Shown piece after piece: positions 2,272-50,738 of a stretch of DNA of 64,000 nucleotides (position 1 is the stretch's first letter; each line of letters begins with the position of its first letter). This DNA comes from Candidatus Velesiimonas alkalicola (GTDB lineage Bacteria; Omnitrophota; Gorgyraeia; Velesiimonadales; Velesiimonadaceae): positions 64,565 through 128,564 of the forward strand of contig NDHX01000004.1 in NCBI GenBank assembly GCA_013626165.1. The letters run 5' to 3'. The notes below the pieces were generated by a model. That model ran no database searches and was not told where the DNA came from. It saw only the letters and a program-made list of their open reading frames with translations. The translations under genes were made by a program, and so were the position numbers.

Positions 2272-3356
2272 GAAGGAAAACAAGGAAAATATTCTACGGG
2301 GATGTTGCAGTAGGAGGTAATTCTCCTGTAAGTATTCAGTCTATGACAAGGACCGAATTATCAGATGTTCCATCAACATTAAGACAGATTAAATTGCTTA
2401 AAAAAAAAGGTTGCGAAATAGTAAGGATTGCTGTCCCTGATATTGAATCTGTTTCTTATCTTAAAAAGGCTATACCCAAGAGCGTTCTTCCTATTGAGGC
2501 TGACATACATTTTAACTGGAATATTGCAATACTTTGTATACAGGCCGGTGTTCAGGGGATAAGACTAAATCCAGGAAACATATATAGAAAATCTCAAATT
2601 ATTGCAGTTGCAAAACAAGTGGCTGAAAAAAATATTCCAGTAAGAGTTGGACTTAATTCAGGTTCTCTTCCCGTCTGCGCAGGCACACTTTCGGGAAAGA
2701 TGGTAAGATCTGCACTAAACTACATAGATATCTTACAAAAGGCTGGTGTGTGTAATATCATTGTTTCACTTAAATGTTCAGATGTTCAGCAGACTGTTGC
2801 TTCATATAGAGAACTTGCAAAAAAAACAGATATTCCTTTCCATTTAGGAATAACCGCAACAGGTTTTGGAACAGAATCAATTGTAAAATCATCTATCGGT
2901 ATTGGCTCACTGCTTTTAGATGGAATAGGAGATACTATAAGAGTATCTTTTTCAGGAAATCCTGTTGAAGAGGTAAGCACAGGGAAGTATATATTACAGG
3001 CACTGAGAATAAGGAGATTTTTCCCGGAGGTTATTGCCTGTCCGACCTGTGGAAGATGTACAATAGATGTTCCAAGAATTGCAAAACAGGTTTATTCAAA
3101 ATTATCTAATATATCCAATAATTATCCCGGTATTTTAAGTCTCACAGTTGCAGTTATGGGATGTGTTGTGAACGGTCCTGGTGAAGCAAAAAATGCTGAT
3201 GTAGGCATAGCAGGGGGCAAAGGCAAAGGGCTTTTATTTGTGAAAGGAAAGCCTCTGTATAATGTGGAAGAAAAAAAATTGGCAGACACTCTTGTAAAAC
3301 AGGCTATTTCCCTGTCTTTACTTGCGACTGCCGCCCCAAATTGTCGGGACAAGTAA
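2268..3356 (+). CDS. ispG: 4-hydroxy-3-methylbut-2-enyl diphosphate synthase (IspG/GcpE)
   Basis: GcpE-like sequence incl. C-terminal CPTCGRC Fe-S cysteine motif; translationally coupled to rseP. Confidence 0.85.
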   Translation: MRRKTRKIFYGDVAVGGNSPVSIQSMTRTELSDVPSTLRQIKLLKKKGCEIVRIAVPDIESVSYLKKAIPKSVLPIEADIHFNWNIAILCIQAGVQGIRLNPGNIYRKSQIIAVAKQVAEKNIPVRVGLNSGSLPVCAGTLSGKMVRSALNYIDILQKAGVCNIIVSLKCSDVQQTVASYRELAKKTDIPFHLGITATGFGTESIVKSSIGIGSLLLDGIGDTIRVSFSGNPVEEVSTGKYILQALRIRRFFPEVIACPTCGRCTIDVPRIAKQVYSKLSNISNNYPGILSLTVAVMGCVVNGPGEAKNADVGIAGGKGKGLLFVKGKPLYNVEEKKLADTLVKQAISLSLLATAAPNCRDK

Positions 3357-3665
3357 AGTGCCCCCATTACCTTATGATAAGCGATTCGGATTGACACAGA
3401 TACGAGGGTTTGGTAGAATAGTGCCTGCCAATTAGGCGATAAAAAACTGGCGATAAGGCGACAAAAAAACATTTCAATATTCCGCAGACTGAGTTGGGTG
3501 AGTAAATGCTCAGTGAACACCGTTGTCATTGCGAGGGAACGAAAGGTGACCGAAGCAATCTCATGAGATTGCCACGTCGCTGTCGCTTCTCGCAATGACG
3601 GACTTAAGTGAATACTTACTCGGGTGATTTTTGAACTTTATAGAGGGAATGAAGGTAGGTAAGAT

Positions 3666-4637
3666 ATGAAAAAATTATTTATGTTTATTGTATTTGTACT
3701 CACACTTGCAGGTGTTTGCCATTCTTTCTGGATATGGACACCTGAAACAGGCAGGTTTATAAATCCTAAGTATGCTGTAAAAGATTCGCCAAAAGAGCAG
3801 TTTGAATGGGCTATGGAGCTTTATAAAGCAGGGGATTATAAAAGAGCACTATCAGAATTTAGGAAACTTTACAGGATTTATCCTGATTCAATGTATGCAA
3901 GCCAGTCTGGGCTTTATGAAGGAAAATCCCAGGAAGGTTTAGGTAATTACTGGCAGGCATTTAAGGCATACCAAAAAATGATAGAAAAATATCCATATAG
4001 TAAGTCTGTGCCGGTTGCAATAGAAAGGAGTTTCAAGATAGGTGAAATGTTTCTTGAAGGAAAAAAAATAAAAAGATTAGGATTAGAAATATTTCCGTCA
4101 GCAGATGAGACAATACAGATATTTGAAAAAGTAGTGAAAAATGCGCCATTTGGACCATATGGAGCAAAGGCACAGTTTAATTTAGGGGTTGCATATAGCA
4201 GGGCTAGAAGGTTTGCTGAAAGTGGAGAGGCCTTTCTTAAAGTTATTGACAATTATCCGGAGAGTCCACTTGCAGGCGAAGCAAGGATACAGATTGCAAA
4301 AAGTTCACAGATGGCTTCGTTAAGGCCAAAGTATGACCAGACATCAACCAAAAAAGCGATACGAGAGTTCGAAGAGATTTTAAAATTAGGCTCTCAACCG
4401 GAGATCGTGGAAAAGGCTCAACAATCTCTTACTGCATTAAAAGAAAAAAAGGCTGAAAGTCTTTATTTAATTGCACAATTTTATGAAAAGAGACGCTCTG
4501 TTAATGGTGCAAAAATATACTATAAGCAGATACTAAAAAATTATGCTGATACAAACATTGCAGAAAAAGCAAAACAAAGAATGACAGAAATATTCCTTTC
4601 GGGAAAATCCCTGGGGGAAACAGGCTGGGAACAATGA
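3666..4637 (+). CDS. TPR-repeat outer-membrane assembly lipoprotein, BamD/YfiO-like
   Basis: N-terminal signal peptide, TPR-like repeats (YKAGDYKRALSEF..., AQFNLGVAY), precedes LptE-like lipoprotein. Confidence 0.5.
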   Translation: MKKLFMFIVFVLTLAGVCHSFWIWTPETGRFINPKYAVKDSPKEQFEWAMELYKAGDYKRALSEFRKLYRIYPDSMYASQSGLYEGKSQEGLGNYWQAFKAYQKMIEKYPYSKSVPVAIERSFKIGEMFLEGKKIKRLGLEIFPSADETIQIFEKVVKNAPFGPYGAKAQFNLGVAYSRARRFAESGEAFLKVIDNYPESPLAGEARIQIAKSSQMASLRPKYDQTSTKKAIREFEEILKLGSQPEIVEKAQQSLTALKEKKAESLYLIAQFYEKRRSVNGAKIYYKQILKNYADTNIAEKAKQRMTEIFLSGKSLGETGWEQ

Positions 4638-38443: not shown

Positions 38444-40441
38444 TTGAGTAATCTTGTAATAGTAGAATCTCCTGCAAAGGCTAAAACCATAGGGAAGTTT
38501 CTTGGGACAAACTATACCGTCAAAGCATCTATGGGACATGTTATAGATTTGCCGGGCAACAGAATGGGAATAGAAATAAGTAATGAAAAAATAGGAGAAC
38601 CTGAATATGTAGTAATAAAAGGGAAAAAAACCGTGCTTACAGAATTAAAAAAAATTGCGAAAAATTCAAATGTATATATTGCAACAGATCCAGACAGAGA
38701 AGGTGAGGCAATAGGCTGGCATATCTTAAATTACATTAAGGCTGAAAATCCCAGGAGAATACTTTTATATGAAATAACAAAAGAAGCCGTTCAATATGCA
38801 ATCGAACATCCATCCTTGATAGACAATAATAAGGTTCAGTCCCAGCAGGCAAGAAGAATACTTGACAGGGTTGTTGGCTACTCAATAAGTCCGATATTGT
38901 GGAAAAAAGTGGGCAGGGGTTTAAGCGCAGGCAGGGTCCAATCTGTTGCAGTGCGGATTATTGTTGAAAGAGATAGGCAGATAAGGGCATTTGTTTCGGA
39001 AGAATACTGGACAATAGATGCTATATTTTCTAAATTAAACAATGAGGTATTTACTTCTCGTCTTGATAGAATACAGGATGAGAAAATAAACATTAAAACA
39101 AAACAACAGGCAGATGGTATTATCGCCAGAATTAAAGGGTGTAAAAAATTTTCTGTATCTGATATAAAAATTACAGAAAAAAAGAAAAATCCATCCCCTC
39201 CTTTTATAACAAGTCAATTACAGCAGGTAGCATTTAATAAATTTCATTTTCCTGCTATAAAAACTATAAAGATTGCACAGACACTTTATGAAGGGCTTCA
39301 GATAGGCAGCAAGGAACAGGCTGGACTTATTACATACATCAGAACAGACTCTGTTAGGTGTTCAGAATCAGCAATCAAAGATGTAAGAAAATTTATTGGG
39401 GAAAAGTATGGAGATGGGTTGTGTCCCGAATCGCCCAACAGATATAAATCAAAAAAAACCGCACAGGAAGCACACGAGGCAATCCGCCCGACATCTGTTT
39501 ATAGGACACCCGATGATATAAAGCAAAACCTAACAGAAGAGCAATTTAAAATCTATGAACTTATATGGCAGAAATTTGTTGCAAGTCAGATGAGTCCTGC
39601 TATATTTTCTCAAATAAGAATTGAAATTACAGGTATAAACAATCAGGACAAATTTCTTTTTGTCTCAACTGGTTCTGTGCCTGTGTTTTTAGGTTTCCTT
39701 TCCGTTTATCAGGAGGCTGACAAACGGGGATTGGAAGAAAAAAGTGAAGGTGAAATAAAAATCCCATCTTTTACAAAAAATGAACAGGTTGAATTGAAAG
39801 AGTTAAAATCGGGTCAGCATTTTACGCAACCGCCGCCCCATTATACAGATGCAAGCCTTATAAAAGCACTTGAAGAAAAAGGTATAGGAAGGCCATCTAC
39901 ATATGCGGGCATACTTCAAGTAATCGTTAATAGGGGGTATGTGAAGAGAGAAAAGGGGGCACTTCTTGCAACAGAGATAGGAGAAATAGTTACCGATATG
40001 CTTATAAAATCTTTTCCCAATATTTTAGATGTTAAGTTCACAGCACAGATAGAAGATGAGCTTGACATCATTGAGCAAGGTAAAACAAAGTGGGATGCAG
40101 TTATCTTAAATTTTTACAGGCCGTTTAAGATTTCTCTTGATAATGCCGGGAGAGATATGCAAAACTTTAAAAAAATAGAAGTGAAAACCGATAAAAAGTG
40201 TGAAAAGTGCCAAAGCCCAATGGTTATAAAATGGGGAAGAAATGGTAGATTTATTGCCTGTTCGGCATACCCGTCTTGTAAAAATACAAAGTCCATAGGA
40301 ACAGGTGTGAAGTGTCCGTCACAAGACTGTGGGGGCGAACTTGTAGAAAGAAGAGCAAGGAAAAAAGGAGCAAGGCTCTTCTACGGTTGTTCAAGGTATC
40401 CCGAATGTAAATTTGTCACCTCATATTTGAAAAAAATATGA
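38444..40441 (+). CDS. topA: DNA topoisomerase I
   Basis: TOPRIM start LVIVESPAKAKTIGKFLG, active-site Tyr region, C-terminal Cys4 zinc ribbons. Confidence 0.9.
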   Translation: MSNLVIVESPAKAKTIGKFLGTNYTVKASMGHVIDLPGNRMGIEISNEKIGEPEYVVIKGKKTVLTELKKIAKNSNVYIATDPDREGEAIGWHILNYIKAENPRRILLYEITKEAVQYAIEHPSLIDNNKVQSQQARRILDRVVGYSISPILWKKVGRGLSAGRVQSVAVRIIVERDRQIRAFVSEEYWTIDAIFSKLNNEVFTSRLDRIQDEKINIKTKQQADGIIARIKGCKKFSVSDIKITEKKKNPSPPFITSQLQQVAFNKFHFPAIKTIKIAQTLYEGLQIGSKEQAGLITYIRTDSVRCSESAIKDVRKFIGEKYGDGLCPESPNRYKSKKTAQEAHEAIRPTSVYRTPDDIKQNLTEEQFKIYELIWQKFVASQMSPAIFSQIRIEITGINNQDKFLFVSTGSVPVFLGFLSVYQEADKRGLEEKSEGEIKIPSFTKNEQVELKELKSGQHFTQPPPHYTDASLIKALEEKGIGRPSTYAGILQVIVNRGYVKREKGALLATEIGEIVTDMLIKSFPNILDVKFTAQIEDELDIIEQGKTKWDAVILNFYRPFKISLDNAGRDMQNFKKIEVKTDKKCEKCQSPMVIKWGRNGRFIACSAYPSCKNTKSIGTGVKCPSQDCGGELVERRARKKGARLFYGCSRYPECKFVTSYLKKI

Positions 40442-42384
40442 TATTTCATCTCAAAAGTCCATACAAACCTGTTAGTGATCAGCCCTCTGCTATTTATTTC
40501 CTGTCAGATGGTATTAAAAAAAATATAAGATATCAGACACTGCTTGGCGCAACCGGCACAGGAAAAACATTTACCATTGCAAATGTAATCTCTAATATTG
40601 ATAAACCCGTCCTTGTAATATCACACAACAAAACACTTGCCGCACAATTATACAGAGAGTTCAAAGATTTTTTCCCCAGCAATGCAGTAGAATACTTCAT
40701 AAGTTATTATGATTATTACCAGCCCGAAGCATATATCCCGCAGACAGACACATATATTGAAAAAGACGCAACCATAAACGAAGAAATAGACAGACTTCGT
40801 CTTAAAGCAACAAGCAGCCTTATTACAAGAAGAGATGTGATTGTTGTTGCAAGCGTTTCCTGTATATATAACCTCGGTGAACCTTCCGAGTATGAGGGAG
40901 CACACTTAAATATAAGCGTCGGACAGACTATACCGATGGAGGATATTTTAAAAGAGTTTGTTAGTCTTCGCTATAACAGAGACGAAACAGGGTTTAAGAG
41001 AGGTATTTTTAGGGTAAGAGGGGATGTTGTTGAAATTTTTCCGTCATATGAGGAAACCCCTTTCAGGATAGAATTTTTTGGCAACAGAATAAAAAAGATT
41101 TCTCTTATAAAAACAGACGGGGCCTTTGTTTCAAACCTTGAAAAACTTTTTCTTTATCCAGCAAAACATTTTGTTGTATCACAAAATAGATTTCAAGATG
41201 CCCTTGACTCTATAAGAGAGGAACTTAAAAAAAGAGTAAAAGAACTTTTATCTGCGGGTAAAGAAATGGAGGCAAACAGGTTAAAAACAAGAACAGAATT
41301 TGATATTCAGATGCTTGAAGAAGCAGGGGTCTGTAATGGCATAGAAAACTATTCTAGACATTTTTCCCGCCGTCCAGCAGGAAGCCGTTCCTATGCGCTT
41401 CTTGATTATTTTCCAAAAGATTTTCTTACCATTATTGATGAATCACATGTTACAATCCCTCAGATTCGGGGAATGTATAATGCAGATAAATCAAGGAAAC
41501 AAACACTCGTTGATTTTGGTTTCAGACTTCCGTCCTGTATGGATAACAGGCCATTAAAATTTGAAGAATGGGATATGCTTACACCTCAATGTATATTTAT
41601 GTCTGCAACCCCCGGTGGATATGAACTGACGAAAAGTTTAGATAGAATTATTGAGCAAATTATAAGACCCACGGGACTTGTTGACCCAAAGATAGAGGTT
41701 CGCCCGATAAAAGGACAGATAGACGATATTATAAAAGAATGTAAAAACAGGATAAAAAAAGAACAAAGGGTGCTTATAACAACACTTACAAAAAAAATGG
41801 CAGAAGAATTGTCCAGGTACCTTGAAGAAATGGGTATAAAGGCAAGATATATACATTCCGATTTAAATGCATTTGAAAGAGTTGGCATCCTGAAAGATTT
41901 GAGGCTCAGAAACATAGATGTGCTTGTAGGAGTGAATCTTTTAAGAGAAGGGCTTGACCTTCCGGAGGTTTCTCTTGTTGCTGTTTTTGATGCTGATAAA
42001 GAGGGGTTCTTAAGGTCAAAAACCTCGCTGATACAGGTTTCTGGAAGAGCCGCAAGAAATATTGACGGAAGCGTTATACTGTATGCCGATACAATCACCG
42101 ATTCAATGAAAGAGGCATCAAAAGAATCGGAAAGAAGAAGAGTTGTGCAGATACGATATAATAAGCAACACAATATAAAACCGAAAACAATCCAGAAGGC
42201 GGTTAAAAATTATCTTGACACCTATGAGAAAAACCAGATCTCAAAGGTGACAGATAACATAGCCTACTACAAGGAAAAAAATATACAAAAACTTGAAGCA
42301 GAAATGAAAAGGACTGCAAGAGAACTAAACTTTGAAAAAGCAGCTTTGATAAGAGATAGAATAAAACAATTAAAAAAAGTTTGA
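40438..42384 (+). CDS. uvrB: excinuclease ABC subunit B
   Basis: Helicase motifs (GATGTGKT), C-terminal UVR motif ALIRDRIKQLKK. Confidence 0.9.
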   Translation: MIFHLKSPYKPVSDQPSAIYFLSDGIKKNIRYQTLLGATGTGKTFTIANVISNIDKPVLVISHNKTLAAQLYREFKDFFPSNAVEYFISYYDYYQPEAYIPQTDTYIEKDATINEEIDRLRLKATSSLITRRDVIVVASVSCIYNLGEPSEYEGAHLNISVGQTIPMEDILKEFVSLRYNRDETGFKRGIFRVRGDVVEIFPSYEETPFRIEFFGNRIKKISLIKTDGAFVSNLEKLFLYPAKHFVVSQNRFQDALDSIREELKKRVKELLSAGKEMEANRLKTRTEFDIQMLEEAGVCNGIENYSRHFSRRPAGSRSYALLDYFPKDFLTIIDESHVTIPQIRGMYNADKSRKQTLVDFGFRLPSCMDNRPLKFEEWDMLTPQCIFMSATPGGYELTKSLDRIIEQIIRPTGLVDPKIEVRPIKGQIDDIIKECKNRIKKEQRVLITTLTKKMAEELSRYLEEMGIKARYIHSDLNAFERVGILKDLRLRNIDVLVGVNLLREGLDLPEVSLVAVFDADKEGFLRSKTSLIQVSGRAARNIDGSVILYADTITDSMKEASKESERRRVVQIRYNKQHNIKPKTIQKAVKNYLDTYEKNQISKVTDNIAYYKEKNIQKLEAEMKRTARELNFEKAALIRDRIKQLKKV

Positions 42385-42506
42385 CAATAAAAGAAGTGCA
42401 AAATAAAACGAGAAAATAAAACTATTGAAGAAAGTTATGTCATTGTCGTACAAGTAGATTTCCGCACGGAGTTATTTAGGGTCTGCTGAAAAACTCATCA
42501 GACCCT

Positions 42507-42588
42507 GATTCCACAGATTAAAAAGCAGATTACACAGATTAAAACCCGATGACAAAATCGGTGTAATCTTTCAAAAATCTGTGTAATC
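42507..42588. repeat. 'GATTACACAGAT' element, copy 2
   Basis: Shares ...gtgtaatctttcaaaaatctgtgtaatca with copy 3; downstream of uvrB. Confidence 0.8.
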
Positions 42589-43120
42589 AGGGCTTACTGA
42601 AAAATTTACATCTGTCAAAAGTGCAAGGTTTTTACATAAAAAGAACAAAAAATCGTGCACTTTTAGCGCTATTTTTGTGGTTTAAATCGCTTAATTTCCG
42701 TCGTAGTATCCAAATTTTTAGCATTTTTCAGTAAGCCCTATTTATTAAGTTAGAAAAGAAACAATGCTTATTGTGGCGGTAATGTATCTTGACAGAAATT
42801 TTCAGTTACCATTGGCGGCAAATGTCAGATGGCAGCAGGTGAGATCTTACGCTCCTTTATCTTTTGGAGCTATAGCTATTTCCAAAAGAAGTTAGATGCG
42901 GATGAAGTATTTAGGTTAGCTATGCCAAAGAACAAACAGCTTAGGTTAAACTATGCTGTTACAGGGTAAAAAGACTAAATTTGCCAAAGTTTAGCTGTAC
43001 ATTAAGTTCGTATAATATGCAACAAAAGGTCGATATTATACATTCAATTCGTATAGAAACGAGTTATATGAAATTGCTTTTAATTTGAGAATTATAAAAT
43101 AAAATTGGAGGAATGGAAAA

Positions 43121-43315
43121 ATGGACGTGAAAGAATTAATCGCCAAGGAGATAGAAAATGTTCCTGAGCCCTATCTCATGGAGATACTGGATTTTATCCG
43201 ATTTTTAGAGACTAAGGCTTTGGAACAAAAGATGGAACTTGCATTAGCAAGTGAAGCGTCTCTTAAAAAAGATTGGCTGAAGCCTGAGGAGGATGAAGCA
43301 TGGAAAGATTTGTAA
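43121..43315 (+). CDS. DUF2281-like antitoxin
   Basis: 64 aa, EILDFIRFLETK motif, overlaps downstream toxin gene by 16 nt. Confidence 0.6.
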   Translation: MDVKELIAKEIENVPEPYLMEILDFIRFLETKALEQKMELALASEASLKKDWLKPEEDEAWKDL

Positions 43316-43632
43316 AAGGGGATGTAGTAGTCGTTCCTTTCCCTTTCTCAGATTTAACCCGAGCTAAAAGACGACCGGCTTTGGTAATCGCAGAGTTAGA
43401 AGGTAATGATCTGATTCTTTGCCAGATAACCAGTCAGTCTATTAGAGACAGATACGCAGTTTTAATTGACAAGAATGATTTTGAAACCGGGACGCTTAGG
43501 CGAAAAAGTAATGTGCGACCTAACCGCATATTCACAGCAGATCGTCACATCATCCTGTATCGAGTTGGTCATCTTAAACCTAAAAAGATCGATCAGATAA
43601 TTGAGAGGATAGTATCTATCCTTCGGCAATAA
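43300..43632 (+). CDS. MazF/PemK-family type II toxin endoribonuclease
   Basis: GDVVVVPFPFSDLTRAKRRPALVI PemK/MazF signature. Confidence 0.75.
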   Translation: MERFVKGDVVVVPFPFSDLTRAKRRPALVIAELEGNDLILCQITSQSIRDRYAVLIDKNDFETGTLRRKSNVRPNRIFTADRHIILYRVGHLKPKKIDQIIERIVSILRQ

Positions 43633-43645
43633 ATATGCAACTTCC

Positions 43646-43740
43646 GATAACAGAGCGTATCTGGCTTCGGCTTACGCCTCCGCCCAAATCCCCCTTCGGA
43701 GAACTTCAGATACGCTCGAAACGTTATATGAAATGGCGGT
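43646..43740 (+). repeat. attC-like palindrome 1 (ATAACA-GAGCGTATCTG...CAGATACGCTC-GAAAC-GTTATAT, plus right arm ATGAAATGGCGGT)
   Basis: Begins 14 bp after the toxin stop; inner 11-bp inverted boxes; unequal spacers (1 nt vs 5 nt) next to the AAC/GTT ends. Confidence 0.55.
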
Positions 43741-43746
43741 TCCAAA

Positions 43747-44904
43747 ATGAATGAAGAAAGGAAAACCATGAAAACAAATAATACCCGACAATTAACATTA
43801 GAAAGTTTAGAGGCTATTCCGCTTACTTATGGTTCAATTATTCTAAATAAAGAGATGTTTATTCAAGTTTTGGTTGAGACTAAAACTCTACAGGATTTAA
43901 TTTCTCTTAAGAACAAACTAATTGTATTAAAAGATATTATAACTAATCATAAAAAGGACCAAGAAGGCATATTAAATATTGACGCTAATGGAGATACGGT
44001 CTCCTTACGCAGAGATGTTCTAACTTCTGAATTAAATCAAATCCTTGAGTCGCAAACAGTTGAAAGAGCTAAGTACTATTTAAAAAGATTGGAAAATGGA
44101 GTCCAAAAAGTTAAGACAAGTAAAATCAACGACATAAATCTTTTAAGGTGGAAAGAATATGATGATATTATTACCGATAGCCTTTGGGTATTAGATAAGA
44201 GGGATACTTCAGGTGTCCATCTTGGTTGGTATTGGGGAAATTTCATCCCACAGATTCCGCATCAGACCCTGATAAGATATACCAAAAAAGGAGATTGGGT
44301 TTTAGATGCATTTGTGGGAAGTGGAACGACCTTGATTGAGTGCCGAAGATTGGGTAGAAACGGAATAGGAATAGAATTAAACCAAGAAGTGGCACGAGAA
44401 GCAAAGAAATTGATTGAAAAGGAACAAAATAAAGATAATGTAGTTAGTGAAGTAATAATTGGGGACAGTAGGACGATGAATATAGAAGAAATTTTGACAA
44501 AGCACAAAATTAATCAAGTTCAACTTCTTATTATGCATCCTCCGTACCATAATATTATTAAGTTTTCAAAAGATGAAAAAGACCTTTCGAACGCAAAAAA
44601 TACTGAAGAATTTTTGAAAATGTTTGGGGAGGTGATAAATAATGCAACTCCATACTTAGAAAAAGAGCGGTACTTTGCTTTAGTTATTGGCGATAAGTAT
44701 TCTAAAGGTGAATGGATACCTTTAGGATTTTATTGTATGAATGAAGTATTAAAAAGAGGCTATTTATTAAAAAGTATAATTGTTAAAAACTTTGAAGAAA
44801 CGCGAGGCAAGAGAAATCAACAAGAACTTTGGAGATATAGGGCGTTAGTAGGTGGATTTTATATTTTTAAGCATGAATATATAATGTTATTTAAGAAAAA
44901 ATAG
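43747..44904 (+). CDS. DNA methyltransferase (N6-adenine/N4-cytosine type)
   Basis: FIPQIPHQT (motif X-like), VLDAFVGSGTT (motif I), IMHPPY (motif IV) about 65 aa apart; better RBS before ATG 43768. Confidence 0.75.
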   Translation: MNEERKTMKTNNTRQLTLESLEAIPLTYGSIILNKEMFIQVLVETKTLQDLISLKNKLIVLKDIITNHKKDQEGILNIDANGDTVSLRRDVLTSELNQILESQTVERAKYYLKRLENGVQKVKTSKINDINLLRWKEYDDIITDSLWVLDKRDTSGVHLGWYWGNFIPQIPHQTLIRYTKKGDWVLDAFVGSGTTLIECRRLGRNGIGIELNQEVAREAKKLIEKEQNKDNVVSEVIIGDSRTMNIEEILTKHKINQVQLLIMHPPYHNIIKFSKDEKDLSNAKNTEEFLKMFGEVINNATPYLEKERYFALVIGDKYSKGEWIPLGFYCMNEVLKRGYLLKSIIVKNFEETRGKRNQQELWRYRALVGGFYIFKHEYIMLFKKK

Positions 44905-44915
44905 GAGATAAAACT

Positions 44916-45749
44916 ATGCCATTATTAAGTCAAAAAGAAGTCTTAAATTTAAAACTCAGTTGTATTCCTTTACCGCAGTTAAAACTACCTGCTCTAAACT
45001 TAGGAATAAACAATACAGGTTCAGCAACAGAGATTATTAAAAGAGTTTTGGATAAAGGGGTAGACGAAAAAGTAATACAGAGATTCATAAAACAAAAATA
45101 TAATGAAAGAATCCAGGAACGGAGGGAGGTTATTTCTGATGAGGACTTAAAAAAAGAATTGTTAAAAGTCCAAACCTTTTCTTGGGGCGTGGTTCAAGGG
45201 CAGTTAGATCAGAAAATACAGGCTGAATATGTGAGAAGAATTGTAAGATATGAAGACCTGCTAAATAATGTCAGGGCGAAACTTCACGAAGATGTGACTA
45301 AATATGTAATTTGTACTTGGTTTAATCATTGGACAACTGTGTTAATAGAAGAACATATAAGCACTCACAAGAGGGTGATCCCCACTATTAAAAATATAAA
45401 AGGAATTGATATTTTCTTTGATGGACAGCCATTTGACTTAAAAGTGACCTACCTTCCTCGTGAATATAATCCCTCTGATGCTATAAAAAATCCTACTGAT
45501 TTAGCTGTCTGGCTATATGAAAATCAGGGTGCTCAAAGATTTGGGGCTGACAATCGGTTATTTGTTGTATTGTTGGATAAAGATAACACTGAAAGAAGTT
45601 GGGAATTAAAAAGAGATTTTACTTTAGTATTCCAAAAGATTGATAATTTCTTTGATAGAGAGACGGTGTCAAAGAAAGACGAGATTGTTTTCACTTTTGG
45701 CAGAAAAACATATACAGCAGTTACAAAGGTTTTGATAATAACAAAATGA
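44916..45749 (+). CDS. putative restriction endonuclease partner (PD-(D/E)xK-like)
   Basis: Immediately downstream of the MTase (12-bp gap, RBS ggag); candidate catalytic pattern EEH...GIDIFFDGQPFDLK (D-x9-DLK). Confidence 0.45.
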   Translation: MPLLSQKEVLNLKLSCIPLPQLKLPALNLGINNTGSATEIIKRVLDKGVDEKVIQRFIKQKYNERIQERREVISDEDLKKELLKVQTFSWGVVQGQLDQKIQAEYVRRIVRYEDLLNNVRAKLHEDVTKYVICTWFNHWTTVLIEEHISTHKRVIPTIKNIKGIDIFFDGQPFDLKVTYLPREYNPSDAIKNPTDLAVWLYENQGAQRFGADNRLFVVLLDKDNTERSWELKRDFTLVFQKIDNFFDRETVSKKDEIVFTFGRKTYTAVTKVLIITK

Positions 45750-45750
45750 G

Positions 45751-45869
45751 ACCGCCACTTCATATAACACAGCATAAAAGGTTCGTGCCTTCGGCACTCA
45801 CCCAAATCCTTCGCTATCGCTCAGGACTTCTTTTATGCTGGAAACGTTATATGAAATTCGGCTTGGCGG
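45751..45869 (+). repeat. attC-like palindrome 2 (arms ACCGCCACTTCAT / ATGAAATTCGGCTTGGCGG; ATAACA-CAGCATAAAAG...CTTTTATGCTG-GAAAC-GTTATAT)
   Basis: Same ends and central ttcgtgccttcggcac...cccaaat segment as sites 1 and 3, with a different but perfectly complementary inner 11-bp box pair. Confidence 0.55.
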
Positions 45870-45914
45870 ACGGATAACAAAATTAATGAAAACAAAAACA
45901 TATAGGTGGATGTG

Positions 45915-47327
45915 ATGAAAACGCTTTACGAGGCAAAACAAGAAACTTTGTTTGGGGAAAGGACCATCGAGCAAAAATACTTAGAATTAATCAATAACGA
46001 GCATAACATCTCTAAAGGAGTTGAAGTTTTAGATAAAATTGATTGGGACTTTAAAGATTTTACGACTCAGTATCTTACACATACGTTTCATTCTTACCCC
46101 GCAAGGTTTATACCTCAAATACCTCTGACTTTCATCAAATTATTTACAAAAGAGAAAGAAACTGTCTTAGACCCAATGTGCGGTTGTGGAACAACATTGG
46201 TAGAGGCTTTTTTAAATAATCGAAATTCTATTGGGAATGACTTTAACCCACTTGCAACCCTAATAACCAAAGTAAAAACCACTCTAATTGATGAAAACGA
46301 GTTCAGATATTTTAATAAAAAATTGGCAGTTATGAAGCGATATTTAGATTTGGATTATAGAAGAGTTGATGAAAGAATTAATAATCTGCCTAACAGAAAG
46401 GTAAGCAAGATATTCAACAGGGTTGTAATCTCAAAATTAGAAAGCATCCGTGAAACTCTATTAGAGGTAAAAGAAGAAGGACATAATGACTTATTTGATT
46501 TTGGAAGAGTTGCTTTATCATCAACAATATGGTCATTGGTAGAAAATGGTAATGGAATTGATGTTGATGATGTGTTTCTGAAAAAAGTAAAATCTATGCA
46601 GAATGACCTAAATAGGATGGCTAAGATTATTAGGACTGTTCCGGTTGTAAGAGTAATTTGTGGCGATGCAAGAAAATTAGAGGTTGAAACAGCCTCAATA
46701 AACTTAATAGTAACTTCTCCTCCTTATGTAAATGCGTTGGATTATTATAGAGCCCATATGTATAACATGCTTTGGCTTGGAATGGATTTTGACTTGTTTA
46801 GAAAACATGAGATCGGTGGGCATTCCCATTTCATTATCAATAGATTTAGACTACTTTCAGAATATTTAGGTGATATGCTCCGTTCAATGATAGAGATGAA
46901 TAGAGTTTTGAAAAAAGATAAAACATGCGTAATTGTAGTAGGGAACTCCAGTTTGGAGTATGAACTGATTGAAAGTCATAATTTTTTTGCAGAAATGGGT
47001 GAAAAGATAGGATTTAAGCCAATAAAAACAATTTTTAGGAATATTGATAAAACAAGGAAATACACAAGTGCAGATATAGGGAAAATTGATGATGAATATA
47101 TCCTTGTAATGCAAAAGGTAGATGATACCAATATTTCTGCAGATGATGATAATTTTGTTTCCGATGTTGTGCAAGAGCAGATGTTAGGATTTAAAGAGCA
47201 AATAAAGAAATGTCAAGGCACTTCCATTAGGAGTAGAAAACCAACAAATGAGAGACTATTGAAGAATGTTGATAAGATTAGTGAGGCAATAGAAACGATA
47301 TCTGAAGACACAAAAATAAAGAGGTAA
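45915..47327 (+). CDS. DNA methyltransferase (N6-adenine/N4-cytosine type), paralog of 43747
   Basis: HSYPARFIPQIP (motif X-like), VLDPMCGCGTT (motif I), IVTSPPY (motif IV) about 170 aa apart; RBS aggtgga before ATG 45915. Confidence 0.75.
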   Translation: MKTLYEAKQETLFGERTIEQKYLELINNEHNISKGVEVLDKIDWDFKDFTTQYLTHTFHSYPARFIPQIPLTFIKLFTKEKETVLDPMCGCGTTLVEAFLNNRNSIGNDFNPLATLITKVKTTLIDENEFRYFNKKLAVMKRYLDLDYRRVDERINNLPNRKVSKIFNRVVISKLESIRETLLEVKEEGHNDLFDFGRVALSSTIWSLVENGNGIDVDDVFLKKVKSMQNDLNRMAKIIRTVPVVRVICGDARKLEVETASINLIVTSPPYVNALDYYRAHMYNMLWLGMDFDLFRKHEIGGHSHFIINRFRLLSEYLGDMLRSMIEMNRVLKKDKTCVIVVGNSSLEYELIESHNFFAEMGEKIGFKPIKTIFRNIDKTRKYTSADIGKIDDEYILVMQKVDDTNISADDDNFVSDVVQEQMLGFKEQIKKCQGTSIRSRKPTNERLLKNVDKISEAIETISEDTKIKR

Positions 47328-47332
47328 GAAAC

Positions 47333-48307
47333 ATGAAAGAATTTATTAGCAAAATAATATACTCAATTCTCACAGGGCAAGATTATAGGGCCTATGTTCT
47401 TGCTACAATAAATAAAAGATTCATTGATAAAGCGCAAGAACTGATTTCCGAAGTGTTTGAGCACAAACGAAGAGGTGATAATTGGCTTGAAAAACTTTTA
47501 GAAGACACTTTCAAAAAGAAGGGGAAAGAGAACAAATTTAAACTTCTGTGGTTTGGCGGTTTAAATGATAAGACTGTAAAGAATATGACAGGCGGGACAT
47601 CTACAAAGGAAGTATGTTTGGATTTAGGTAGGAAGAACATAGAAGCATTGAAAATATTGCTAAAAGAATTTGATAGTAGTGAGAACTTATATCAACTCAG
47701 AATAATAATCCGGAAAGGTAAAGAACAAGTTGAATTAGACGAAGTTGAAAGTATATTTTTCGTTAATATTATCTCAGCAATGAAACTAACAATTCAAGGA
47801 GGAGCTTGGAGTGAAGTGGGAAAGAAAACCGAAAAAGGTTTACTCTTTGTGATATTTCGATTACTGAAAATTCCAGAAGATAACTATATTTTAACAACTG
47901 CGGAAATGAAGAAAAAAGGACTGGTTGAGAACAGAGAAATCGATGCCATAGTTTTCAGTAAGAACAAAGAGCCTCTAACTATTGAGTTAAAACTACTTGG
48001 AATCGGAAATCCCGAAATAGGTGACGAGGCACTTGCCAGAAAAGTAAGTTTATTTCTGATAGATAGGTTGACAGAGATGATGAAGGAAGAATCTGAAAAA
48101 ATAGGAATTAAAGTAATTGAATTTAGACAAGAAAATTCTCTAATGGAGATGTACAAGTTTTTCAAATCGAAAAATGTGAGTTGTAGTCCGCCCGAAAAAA
48201 TGACACCAAACGAATTAGAAGACGAAATAAATGGAATAATGAAAGAGTGGAGAGAAGAATCAGAAGATTTAGCTGTAATTAAAAAATTAAGGGAGTGGAC
48301 AAAATGA
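47333..48307 (+). CDS. putative restriction endonuclease partner (PD-(D/E)xK-like)
   Basis: 5 bp after the MTase stop; candidate motif EIDAIVFSKNKEPLTIELK (D-x13-ELK). Confidence 0.45.
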   Translation: MKEFISKIIYSILTGQDYRAYVLATINKRFIDKAQELISEVFEHKRRGDNWLEKLLEDTFKKKGKENKFKLLWFGGLNDKTVKNMTGGTSTKEVCLDLGRKNIEALKILLKEFDSSENLYQLRIIIRKGKEQVELDEVESIFFVNIISAMKLTIQGGAWSEVGKKTEKGLLFVIFRLLKIPEDNYILTTAEMKKKGLVENREIDAIVFSKNKEPLTIELKLLGIGNPEIGDEALARKVSLFLIDRLTEMMKEESEKIGIKVIEFRQENSLMEMYKFFKSKNVSCSPPEKMTPNELEDEINGIMKEWREESEDLAVIKKLREWTK

Positions 48308-48309
48308 TT

Positions 48310-48459
48310 ACCGCCAAGCCGAATCTTGCGGAAACCTTCGGTTTCCTTGCCTCGCCTTCGGCTCGGTCATATAACAGAGCGTATCTGGCTTCGTGCCTTC
48401 GGCACTCTGCCCAAATTGCTCGCTTCGCTCGCAACTTCAGATACGCTCAACCGTTATAC
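48310..48459 (+). repeat. attC-like palindrome 3 (left arm ACCGCCAAGCCGAAT, 45-bp insert, ATAACA-GAGCGTATCTG...CAGATACGCTC-AACC-GTTATAC)
   Basis: Core boxes identical to site 1; no conserved right arm beyond GTTATAC, consistent with being the last site of the array. Confidence 0.55.
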
Positions 48460-48829
48460 GCAATAATTTTTAAAAGTTAAAGAAACGACCCAAAAATTTT
48501 TTGTGAGATTTTTTAGGCAAACGGGCAAAAATTCCTGGTGGGGATGACACTCAAACCCCCTTCCTTTTTGCCCGCCTGCTTTCCGCCGAAGGCGGAATGG
48601 GGTGGAAAAGCGTTTCCGCAATTCCTGCGTCAGCAGGAAGGCAAAACAGAAAAATTTTCTTTTCCTTATTTGAAAAATAGTGGCGAGTGATTAAAAAACC
48701 TATTCCCTTGCAAAAATAACAGTCAAAAAAGGACCAACAGCAAGAATGTACTTATCAAACCTTTTAAGAGAAACAAAAAAACAACAAACAGAAAAATATC
48801 CAGAATAGAACTAATAATTCTCCCTTCCC

Positions 48830-49007
48830 GCCGTGCAGGGATAACGCGTGTATCGTTCAAAACCAGAATGCCCTCGTTCTGAAAATAATCCTCTATATTA
48901 CTGAAAATGTCTTCTTCTGCTATCTTCTTTTTTTTGTCAGGCACTATCAAACAGGCTTTTTCTTTCTCCTTGAGGGGTATTGGGCTATCAACTCCTTCGG
49001 CAGGCAA
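48830..49007 (-). pseudogene. queA: queA N-terminal fragment (S-adenosylmethionine:tRNA ribosyltransferase-isomerase remnant, ~60 aa)
   Basis: SPIPLKEKEKACLIV...NEGILVLNDTRVIPARREG matches the QueA N-terminal region (LVFNNTRVIPARLFG in E. coli); similarity ends abruptly, the rest of the ORF is low-complexity, and no remainder of queA is in the window. Confidence 0.6.
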
Positions 49008-49028
49008 TACTTAAAAAACTTCTGCATC

Positions 49029-50738
49029 TTATGATTTCTTTTCAAATACAATAATTGTGGGATTAAGATATATCAAATCTTCAGGGAGAACTTTCGTCCT
49101 AAAAACAAATGCGAGAAACTGTGGGAATTTTTGAAAAGTTTTTCTCTCTTCGTAAAGTTTTGAACCCCTGAACTCTTCCCAGAAGGCAACACGTTCCTGC
49201 TGTAACTTCAATGGATATGGAGGAAAGGGTGCCTGAAAGGATGAAAGGATAAAATAATCCGGTTTCGTTCCTTCCACTCTCTTAAAATCGTATCCTGTAA
49301 CCACAACATTGTATCTCTGGTAATCAAAAGGGGGCATCTGGAACTGCCACGGCACCTCAGCCACTCCGATACTGCTTCCCGCAGGTATATTCTCCTTAAT
49401 CCACACACCTGCTTCAGTTCTGATATTCTCTCTTATAAAAAGCATCTTGTAACTCATCCCGTAAACAAAAGTCCATAATGCTACAAAAATAAAAACTACT
49501 GATAAAAATTTTTTATTTGCAGGGTACAGTCTTTCGTAAAGCCTGAACCATCCAATACTGCCCATAATAACCAGTGATGGAATCGCAGGCAAGATATACC
49601 TGGCAAAGTTTTTTGCAAAAAGAGAAATAAAAACAAAAAAGAAAACCGTCCATGACAGAAGTAAAACAGTTATTTTTCTCTGATACGTATTTTGTTTTTT
49701 TAACAAAATTACAGCACTTAACATACCTGCTAAACAGAAAAAAAATAAAGGCATTCCCATTCCATAGAATAAAGATTTTAGATAAAACATACCGCTGAAT
49801 GCCTGTTCAGTATGCTGTCCCAATTCAATCAGAGGAGCGGGAAAAGTAAGGAAAAAATACGGATTGGTAACAAAAAACATAATAAAAAATCCTGTAAACG
49901 TAAGACATACTCCCTTGATAAAATTTTTCCAGTTGTTATAAATTAAAGCCATTCCAAGTAAGGGAATAAAAAATGCAACAAGGAAAGTAATCTTTGTCCC
50001 GCAGGCAAGCCCTGCAAATATACCTGCAAAAAATACTCTTCTGAATGAAAATCTCTCCATAAAAAGGACCGTTGTAAAAAGACAAGCCATTATCCAAAAT
50101 ACCCCCGGGATGTCAACATACATATAGAGCGAATTAAGCAGCATTAACGGAGCAAACAAGAGCAGCAAGGCACCTGTAAGGGACTGCCATTTCCGGGAAG
50201 CAAGTTTTGCAAGTAAAAAATAAACCAACAGAATAATACCCACACCGTAAAAAGTTGTTATAACCCTGCCGACAATATAAAACTTTGCTATCTCTTGTGG
50301 ATTTAAAAAATAATAACTTATGTCCGGTACTACGGTGATAACCTTTAATTTAGACAAAAGAAAAATCAGCCCACCCACAGGGTACAGATACGCTCCTCCC
50401 ACTGTAAATTGATGTGGATTAAAATTAAACTCCCCTGGTTTCATCGTAGAAAGGCTCTTAATTATAAAATACTCGTCAGGGTGATAACTACGGATAGGGT
50501 TATACTTGGAACGGGGTAGTTTACGTTCGGTTTCTTCCGGGTGCTGAACCAGATGGGCACCCATCCCCTTCCATGACTCTTCCAGGGGATATTTTTTTAA
50601 TGCATCTATATGTTCTATAACATTTTTCCCATCAGTGAAATAGAGACGATTTAATTTTACAGAAGGTAACCCCCAGTAAATTCCCGAAAATTTAATTAAA
50701 AGTGCAATTATACCGATTAGTATGTATTTATGTTTCAT
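49029..50738 (-). CDS. polytopic membrane glycosyltransferase, family 39/83-like (ArnT/PMT-type)
   Basis: 569 aa with >10 predicted TM helices and an N-terminal loop typical of polyprenyl-phosphate-sugar dependent GT-C enzymes. Confidence 0.6.
   Translation of the reverse strand: MKHKYILIGIIALLIKFSGIYWGLPSVKLNRLYFTDGKNVIEHIDALKKYPLEESWKGMGAHLVQHPEETERKLPRSKYNPIRSYHPDEYFIIKSLSTMKPGEFNFNPHQFTVGGAYLYPVGGLIFLLSKLKVITVVPDISYYFLNPQEIAKFYIVGRVITTFYGVGIILLVYFLLAKLASRKWQSLTGALLLLFAPLMLLNSLYMYVDIPGVFWIMACLFTTVLFMERFSFRRVFFAGIFAGLACGTKITFLVAFFIPLLGMALIYNNWKNFIKGVCLTFTGFFIMFFVTNPYFFLTFPAPLIELGQHTEQAFSGMFYLKSLFYGMGMPLFFFCLAGMLSAVILLKKQNTYQRKITVLLLSWTVFFFVFISLFAKNFARYILPAIPSLVIMGSIGWFRLYERLYPANKKFLSVVFIFVALWTFVYGMSYKMLFIRENIRTEAGVWIKENIPAGSSIGVAEVPWQFQMPPFDYQRYNVVVTGYDFKRVEGTKPDYFILSSFQAPFPPYPLKLQQERVAFWEEFRGSKLYEERKTFQKFPQFLAFVFRTKVLPEDLIYLNPTIIVFEKKS

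Follow-up and report, generated by a model that had tools for sequence, protein, structure and literature searches.

A cassette-borne gene pair of Candidatus Velesiimonas alkalicola is probably a restriction-modification system of type II with an unnamed putative nuclease

Restriction enzymes evolve fast and many of their families are still without a name. Defence systems carried on integron gene cassettes are reportedly the subject of a 2024 bioRxiv preprint (10.1101/2024.07.02.601686). In type II enzymes of the PD-(D/E)xK kind, e.g. EcoO109I and BstEII, helix 1 bears a glutamate, strand 2 an aspartate and strand 3 a D-x-K motif, and these enzymes are encoded beside a methylase with which they are co-inherited. 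In DNA amino-methyltransferases, motif IV follows the consensus (D/N/S)PP(Y/F/W), and the beta class is defined by the position of motif IV ahead of motif I (PMC7544214). Here we describe two adjoining genes on a stretch of 64,000 nucleotides from contig NDHX01000004.1 of Candidatus Velesiimonas alkalicola (the window), which encode a methyltransferase (M) and a protein of 277 amino acids (the partner). The partner resembles the PD-(D/E)xK enzymes in the predicted placement of its core residues as well as in its location beside a co-inherited methylase. We consider it probable that the pair constitutes a two-gene type II restriction-modification (R-M) system. All coordinates given without a locus number are positions within the window.

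43747-44904, + strand: methyltransferase gene (M), 385 amino acids counted from the first ATG (list of open reading frames)
44916-45749, + strand: putative restriction endonuclease gene (partner), 277 amino acids (list of open reading frames)

The strongest evidence came from the genomic context. A scan of contigs, one genome per species, with an alignment of 11 partner sequences yielded 157 relatives, and 80 loci were kept. The hosts, all of them metagenome-assembled or otherwise uncultured, were bacteria of the Omnitrophota, Atribacterota, Caldiserica, Elusimicrobia, Planctomycetota, Chloroflexota, Saccharibacteria and other Patescibacteria, Cloacimonadota and Verrucomicrobiota, and archaea (Altarchaeum, Aenigmarchaeota and ANME-1). 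In 64 of 71 non-redundant loci, a methylase with the motif HPPY ended at most 45 nucleotides upstream of a full-length partner gene. The preliminary description of this DNA had listed a lack of co-conservation of the two genes in related genomes among the findings that would refute it; the pair was, however, adjacent in these loci across many phyla. Moreover, the identities of the methylases and of the partners to the respective window copies were correlated (r = 0.79, n = 58). Together with the gap of 11 nucleotides in the window, these data disclose the adjacent and co-inherited gene that is expected for the endonuclease of a type II R-M system. Three unrelated neighbourhoods contained the pair in this order and at this spacing, and the genes around it were unrelated from host to host.

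Pair neighbourhood 1: Ignavibacteria contig, between housekeeping genes
Pair neighbourhood 2: WOR-3 contig, beside ClpXP and carboxyltransferase genes
Pair neighbourhood 3: defence island with ThsB-TIR and MmeI-like genes

A distant subfamily of the partner comprises proteins of approximately 365 amino acids, which share 36% identity with it and contain an insertion that follows the third strand. Four loci were checked, which represent separate contexts, and in all of them the gene of this subfamily was located directly behind an unrelated methylase of the family PF02086 (D12 class), and in one of the four a helix-turn-helix gene occupied the position of a controller (C) protein. The coupling of one family to two unrelated methylase families is the behaviour of restriction endonucleases and is hard to fit to a subunit or regulator of a methylase. 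We regard this pairing as the decisive observation. Viral contigs scanned with the 365-amino-acid subfamily did not reveal any relative.

The partner belongs to a real and strongly constrained protein family, which has no name in the databases. No match of the 277-amino-acid protein was obtained in Pfam, NCBIfam, PADLOC or the PDB sequences, and a profile built from 28 members gave neither a named family in Pfam or PADLOC nor a significant PDB profile match. Thus, the statement that the partner is without a recognisable family holds for the window protein and for the 28-member family alike. A word-indexed search disclosed 1061 matches to homologues, with identities of 78-100% throughout the top 120, and the sources that give these homologues a name label them 'hypothetical' without exception. 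At 50% identity, the family forms 458 clusters (E <= 0.001). Among annotated relatives, none was found in phages and one weak partial match in plasmids. The ratio of nonsynonymous to synonymous substitutions (dN/dS) was 0.05-0.08 with saturated dS, indicating strong purifying selection. In an alignment of the 28 sequences, which reach down to 23% identity, K176, Q204 and R214 were invariant, while W135, E145, H151, P156, D165, F167, P172, D174, P181, Y201, R208, F209, N213, W229 and K232 were kept in at least 90%. The segment GIDIFFDGQPFDLK (residues 163-176), which had been put forward as a plausible nuclease motif, proved to hold the best-conserved residues, i.e. the invariant K176 along with D165 and D174, on consecutive beta-strands of the predicted structure.

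We also predicted the structure of the partner with AlphaFold2 using the family alignment. The model reached a predicted local distance difference test (pLDDT) of 93.8 and a predicted template modelling (pTM) score of 0.89. It shows a long helix at residues 112-149 and other helices at 6-15, 19-28, 37-47, 51-70, 75-82, 97-106 and 186-202, strands at 154-161, 164-168, 171-179 and 214-220, and further helices and a hairpin after residue 220. The predicted order of the C-terminal core is alpha-beta-beta-beta-alpha-beta (helix 112-149, strands 154-161, 164-168 and 171-179, helix 186-202, strand 214-220); a helical linker lies between the N-terminal SAP-like motif described below and this core. E145 ends the long helix, D165 is situated on the second strand, and D174 and K176 are situated on the third strand. 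In the model, this placement is that of a textbook PD-(D/E)xK nuclease, and the predicted structure contains all elements of such a core, namely the alpha-beta-beta-beta-alpha-beta order in which helix 1 and strands 2 and 3 bear the acidic residues and the lysine.

45348-45443, + strand: putative catalytic core of the partner, E145, D165, D174 and K176 (conservation and predicted model)
45348-45350, 45408-45410, 45435-45437 and 45441-45443, + strand: codons of E145, D165, D174 and K176, respectively
44931-45056, + strand: SAP-like helix-extended-helix motif of the partner, approximately residues 6-47 (model, Pfam SAP, Foldseek)

The N-terminal part of the partner contains a SAP-like motif. Pfam SAP matched two of the 28 family members (3.4e-5), and Foldseek related the N-terminus of the model to two SAP domains, those of PIAS1 and of rice SIZ1 (1v66, template modelling (TM) score 0.63 on the target; 2rno). 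Judged from the model, the motif is a probable DNA-binding module. To our knowledge, no N-terminal SAP-like motif of this kind occurs in characterised type II enzymes. A Foldseek search of the whole model against the PDB yielded nothing below E = 0.1; EcoO109I and BstEII surfaced at E 1-2 with poor TM scores. Because the fold searches gave no close structural neighbour, the assignment of a nuclease fold rests on the conservation of the motif and on the predicted topology. The structural comparison that the preliminary description had proposed for the partner thus gave a divided answer: a PD-(D/E)xK-like topology with the appropriate residues in the AlphaFold2 model, and no significant match to any PDB profile or structure. 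From the model we conclude that the partner is likely to have a PD-(D/E)xK nuclease fold.

The same data bear on another explanation, according to which the partner binds DNA via the SAP-like motif and thereby assists the methylase, e.g. as a regulator or as a factor for specificity or targeting, in a module that only modifies DNA. The SAP-like N-terminus would suit such a role, as would the lack of a significant structural or sequence match of the partner to any nuclease. However, the best-conserved residues reside outside the SAP motif in the C-terminal E...D...DxK core, and truncated copies devoid of the SAP region (see below) have retained this core under purifying selection. A subunit of one methylase would not be expected to pair with two unrelated methylase families, and the partner is kept by methylases with and without an N-terminal extension. 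We therefore consider an accessory role unlikely.

M ends with TAG at 44902-44904, the ATG of the partner follows at 44916, and the 11 nucleotides between them read GAGATAAAACT.

44903-44907, + strand: ribosome-binding site AGGAG of the nuclease gene, overlapping the M stop codon, 8 nucleotides ahead of the ATG (read from the sequence)

As AGGAG overlaps the stop codon of M and the gap to the ATG measures 11 nucleotides, translational coupling of the two genes appears plausible. The preliminary description had correctly recognized adjoining genes whose coupling is plausible, while its gap of 12 bp has to be corrected to 11 nucleotides between stop and start. Its two open reading frames agreed exactly with the list of open reading frames in coordinates and lengths, and the motifs quoted in it were all located, FIPQIPHQT, DAFVGSGTT and HPPY in M and the above segment in the partner. 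The true start of M is probably the second ATG at 43768, which would result in a protein of 378 amino acids; this start is used by the NCBI record and by most homologues of M, and AAAGGAAAA lies directly ahead of it.

M matched the Pfam family PF01555 (N6_N4_Mtase) with 7.8e-23 and, over its full length, the PADLOC Type II MTase model PDLC03351 with 2e-145; a protein search gave 6783 matches to homologues. The closest solved relatives are the beta-class enzymes TTHA0409, M.MboIIA, DpnA and CcrM, with which M shares the Pfam family and alignable regions of motifs I and IV. Motif I could be aligned to all four, while HPPY of M was aligned to SPPY of TTHA0409 and DPPY of M.MboIIA.

43747-44112, + strand: accessory N-terminal region of M, approximately residues 1-122, missing in short forms, no Pfam match
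44242-44268, + strand: FIPQIPHQT block of M just ahead of motif I, residues 166-174 (alignment)
44305-44331, + strand: motif I DAFVGSGTT of M, S-adenosylmethionine (SAM)-binding loop, residues 187-195 (alignment, conserved)
44536-44547, + strand: motif IV HPPY of M, catalytic loop, residues 264-267, H where D, N or S is usual

The sequence matches support the assignment of M to the SAM-dependent DNA amino-methyltransferases, as a member of PF01555 with a permuted motif order, and thereby agree with the earlier identification of the first gene as a DNA methyltransferase. The family matches and the SAM-binding and catalytic motifs provide the DNA methyltransferase that a type II R-M system needs, with the caveat that motif IV reads HPPY. 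Beta-class enzymes carry motif IV first and motif I last; in M the order is reversed, so that M does not conform to the order of this class (PMC7544214). By its sequence, M thus combines a gamma-like linear order with an affinity to the beta-class family. The gamma-like order and a spacing of about 65 residues had been recognized before, and by our count 68 residues separate the end of motif I from the beginning of motif IV. M also differs from the beta-class enzymes by the histidine at the beginning of motif IV and, in its long forms, by the additional N-terminal region of approximately 122 residues. Residues F166-P171 were invariant in an alignment that included the neighbouring methylase encoded at 45906-47327.

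Many homologues are short forms of 268-274 amino acids, encoded mostly by candidate-phyla bacteria. They begin with INDLNLxNWKEY at approximately residue 123 of M, and for this reason we confine the accessory part to the first 122 residues or so; residues from about 123 to 180 belong to the conserved core. An N-terminal extra region of about 180 amino acids, as assumed previously, is therefore too long.

Wherever a motif IV was found in the homologous methylases, it read HPPY (72 of 72), and HPPY also occurs in a Fusobacterium relative of M (34% identity, 244 amino acids). This non-canonical motif IV could indicate that the methylase acts on RNA or protein and that the pair is no R-M system. 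Some sources indeed label homologues of M 'RsmD', and weak sub-threshold Pfam matches to RNA guanine-N2 methylase families were obtained. Against this, all above-threshold matches of M were to DNA methylase models, and its best solved relatives are all DNA methylases. Methylases of the HPPY family adjoin recognised restriction enzymes, an ICEA/NlaIII-like enzyme in locus L013 and nucleases of the DpnII and Mrr_cat families in Fusobacterium. The mobility of the module and its patchy occurrence in different phyla and domains also set it apart from housekeeping RNA methylases. An RNA or protein substrate is therefore extremely improbable. Slightly less remote, though still very unlikely, is a variant in which the HPPY methylases write a mark other than N6-methyladenine or N4-methylcytosine, e.g. 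on a further exocyclic amine like guanine N2, and the nuclease reads its absence. If true, this would be an R-M chemistry so far undescribed.

Several loci deviate from the standard layout. In L019 and L080, an extra open reading frame of 182-186 amino acids was found between methylase and nuclease (L019 3465-4013; L080 3457-4017). In L022, at the edge of the stretch examined, a homologous frame (184 amino acids, 40-594) immediately precedes the nuclease, and L013 contains another one (2453-2950), 45% identical to the L019 copy. The order in L013 is HPPY methylase (60% identity), extra frame, ICEA/NlaIII-like HNH enzyme (PF05315, 4e-114), methylase remnant and intact nuclease copy. The products of the extra frames in these four loci (165-186 amino acids) did not match Pfam or PADLOC; their conserved blocks YH-x-SNS, GLYLG and GEEFVLF presumably recall H-Y-E ADP-ribosyltransferases. 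In L043 (2973-4591) and L084 (2973-4585), a gene for approximately 344 amino acids is inserted between a truncated methylase and a nuclease copy whose start it overlaps. These nuclease copies are N-terminally truncated and begin near residue 80 with an intact reading frame. The 344-amino-acid product of L043 had no Pfam match, and its apparent relatives in L078 and L028 gave weak EVE matches below the Pfam threshold (E 0.003-0.006). In L078, the EVE-like gene (1253-2284) is located about 1 kb upstream of a truncated nuclease copy (3268-3855), and in L028 (3-3122) a full-length nuclease gene is situated between EVE-like and SIR2-like genes, with no methylase found. The truncated nuclease copies have kept E, D and DxK at a dN/dS of about 0.08.

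The variant loci point to a re-use of the nuclease domain in further defence contexts, and an EVE-like gene together with the nuclease may be a derived defence module reading DNA modification. Because of these loci we retained a minor alternative, in which the partner is a defence nuclease other than a classical type II enzyme blocked by methylation, namely a modular effector dependent on other partners, and the methylase is one of several contexts. The gene overlapping the conserved truncated copies beside a truncated methylase in L043 and L084, the related gene upstream of the truncated copy in L078 and the methylase-free arrangement of L028 argue for it. These are a handful of loci, however, compared to the large majority with the standard layout; the EVE matches did not reach the threshold, and the pair in the window has the standard layout with translational coupling. 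We consider such a modular effector improbable.

In Fusobacterium vincentii (NZ_CP084075.1, L087 1327-4693), a 244-amino-acid HPPY methylase ends a cluster in which a D12-class methylase is accompanied by two nucleases, one of the DpnII family and one of the Mrr_cat type. Although labelled a plasmid, this record has a size of 2.1 Mb.

Some observations weigh against a type II R-M system. None of the PADLOC nuclease models matched any of the 28 family members, and the partner family showed no profile similarity to the DpnII, Mrr_cat and CfrBI nucleases, each compared as a single sequence. In L011, L022 and L028, no HPPY methylase was found alongside the full-length partner, in L022 within DNA that starts close to the extra frame; this counts, since an unconditional restriction enzyme should not be tolerated by a host without protection from another methylase. 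Motif IV of M begins with a histidine, which lies outside the consensus (D/N/S)PP(Y/F/W) (PMC7544214), and a full-text literature search for HPPY together with 'methyltransferase' did not yield any paper on DNA methyltransferases. On the other side, the cassette adjoining the pair contains a bona fide M-then-R system with the same layout (RE_CfrBI, 3e-108), which we count in support of the R-M system. The preliminary description had derived such a system from the M-then-R operon inside a mobile cassette, and the methylase family, the co-inheritance and attC-like hairpins speak in its favour.

In the scheme that we infer for nuclease activity, metal-ion mechanism, methylation sensitivity and target sequence, M would methylate a short target sequence in the genome of its host. 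The nuclease would be translated from the ribosome-binding site overlapping the M stop codon and would act as a Mg2+-dependent endonuclease cutting the same sequence when unmethylated. The SAP-like motif and the helical domain may contact the DNA, while the C-terminal PD-(D/E)xK-type core with E145, D165, D174 and K176 would perform the chemistry. In this genome, a single cassette of the integron type carries the pair, with a toxin-antitoxin cassette on one side and the cassette of a CfrBI-family R-M system on the other.

Attempts were also made to narrow down the recognition sequence. Word avoidance was determined as the ratio of observed to expected (O/E) 4-mers in the window and pooled over 81 host loci. 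In the window, short palindromes were strongly under-represented, among them CTAG (0.16), GATC (0.23), TCGA (0.32), AGCT (0.43), CATG (0.44), ACGT (0.46) and GGCC (0.48); the pooled values were 0.31 for CTAG, 0.41 for GATC, 0.51 for CATG and 0.55 for GGCC. No single target could be picked, because too many 4-mers were depleted. The under-representation of short palindromes suggests a long exposure to many 4-base restriction systems. For the ICEA/NlaIII-like enzyme of L013 we assume the family specificity CATG. Deducing the target by association, CATG from this enzyme or GATC from the DpnII cluster of Fusobacterium, was rejected as evidence. The D12-class methylases paired with the 365-amino-acid subfamily are 31-37% identical to methylases that belong to DpnII-family and AlwI-family enzymes, and 33% identical to a methylase from Neisseria gonorrhoeae located next to an HNH nuclease, which we take to be HphI-like. 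With identities of 31-37% to methylases of several systems, this similarity was uninformative for the target. GATC and CATG are thus weak leads for the target of the pair.

The pair occupies the middle of an array of three cassettes (cassette 2), whose boundaries are marked by attC-like sites.

43063-48460: cassette array with toxin-antitoxin, M and nuclease pair (middle) and CfrBI-family R-M system
43724-45846, + strand: cassette 2, methylase, nuclease and own attC-like site, 2123 bp
43647-43727, + strand: attC-like site 1 (ATAAC...GTTAT), left boundary of cassette 2 (pattern match; bottom strand -17.1 kcal/mol, z-score -3.5)
45764-45850, + strand: attC-like site 2, right boundary of cassette 2 (bottom strand -23.7 kcal/mol, z-score -7.3; none of 200 shuffles folds as well)
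48371-48457: attC-like site 3 (bottom strand z-score -4.2)
43121-43632: cassette 1, toxin-antitoxin with overlapping genes, DUF2281 antitoxin (64 amino acids, 4e-6) and PemK/MazF-like toxin (110 amino acids, 1.5e-12)
45906-48307: R-M system of cassette 3, PF01555 methylase (473 amino acids, 45906-47327) and nuclease (324 amino acids, RE_CfrBI PF09516, 3e-108)

All three sites have the form ATAAC-N(71-77)-GTTAT, and their bottom strands form long imperfect hairpins. Cassette 2 begins at the crossover G|TT (43723/43724) and is delimited by direct repeats GTTATATGAAAT spaced 2123 nucleotides apart; an extra GTTATATGAAAT core without a hairpin is present at 43063, ahead of cassette 1. The start of cassette 2 (43723-43740, first 17 nucleotides) is 94% complementary to 45751-45768 just past the nuclease stop codon, and cassette 3 behaves likewise. 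Such complementarity is expected for integron cassettes, because their ends join in the circular form. The sites display the inverted repeat, the cores of the RYYYAAC/GTTRRRY type and the hairpin of integron attC sites, and with hairpins flanking both sides the earlier suggestion of a mobile cassette was borne out.

The CfrBI-family system of cassette 3 resembles the pair in its M-then-R order on the same strand and its attC-like boundaries. Its methylase is likewise a PF01555 member; it shares with M the FIPQIP block and the motif I sequence VLDxxxGxGTTLxE, and in both proteins motif I precedes motif IV. In contrast to M, the methylase of cassette 3 carries the canonical motif IV SPPY, and the nuclease of this cassette belongs to a named family. 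The methylases are 28% identical, whereas the nucleases show no detectable similarity.

The array is located between uvrB, which we take from its sequence to be the 648-amino-acid open reading frame at 40438-42384, and a block of glycosyltransferase genes. Ten open reading frames beyond uvrB and beyond the array were checked with Pfam; they encode topoisomerase I, sugar and alcohol-dehydrogenase enzymes and glycosyltransferases, and none an integrase. No open reading frame of at least 50 amino acids exists in 42385-43120, and the combination of an integrase and an attI site that marks an integron was not found beside the array. As these ten flanking frames hold no integrase, the array looks like an attC cluster without integrase. 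Its compact attC-bounded module, the ATAAC/GTTAT cores and the company of a toxin-antitoxin pair and a second R-M system are those of integron defence cassettes, from which it differs by the missing integrase among the frames checked and by the rarity of the hairpin. Among the 76 other loci, a comparable hairpin after the nuclease gene was present only in L012, which belongs to a Caldiserica genome, and for this reason we assume that the M-nuclease module mostly travels by other means.

The approximately 680 bp between uvrB and the array (42385-43060) contain local repeats (42496-42545) and inverted repeats (42584-42605/42723-42744 and 42617-42664); this region could be a remnant attI or a promoter region. 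Rfam gave no match over 42300-49100, and promoter and terminator scans did not rise above the shuffled background. The sign of the GC skew flips near 48-49 kb and reverts near 60 kb, which coincides with a block of sugar-nucleotide and glycosyltransferase genes on the minus strand right after the array.

Most likely, what is new here is an unnamed nuclease family, probably of the PD-(D/E)xK type with a SAP-like motif, in an R-M system of a known kind. The finding should thus concern specialists of restriction enzymes and annotators of defence systems and is not surprising in kind. The locus is a clean case of cassette-borne defence, as restriction systems and a toxin-antitoxin pair are bounded by attC sites in an uncultured lineage. 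The invariant HPPY poses the question of which role a histidine plays where D, N or S normally sits, and the family could supply biotechnology with a novel enzyme specificity or a variant of the fold. It represents an annotation gap; its members occur in candidate-phyla bacteria and in DPANN, ANME-1 and Asgard (Thorarchaeota) archaea, essentially all of them uncultured. Naming the partner family would improve the annotation of defence systems in lineages in which the R-M content is undercounted.

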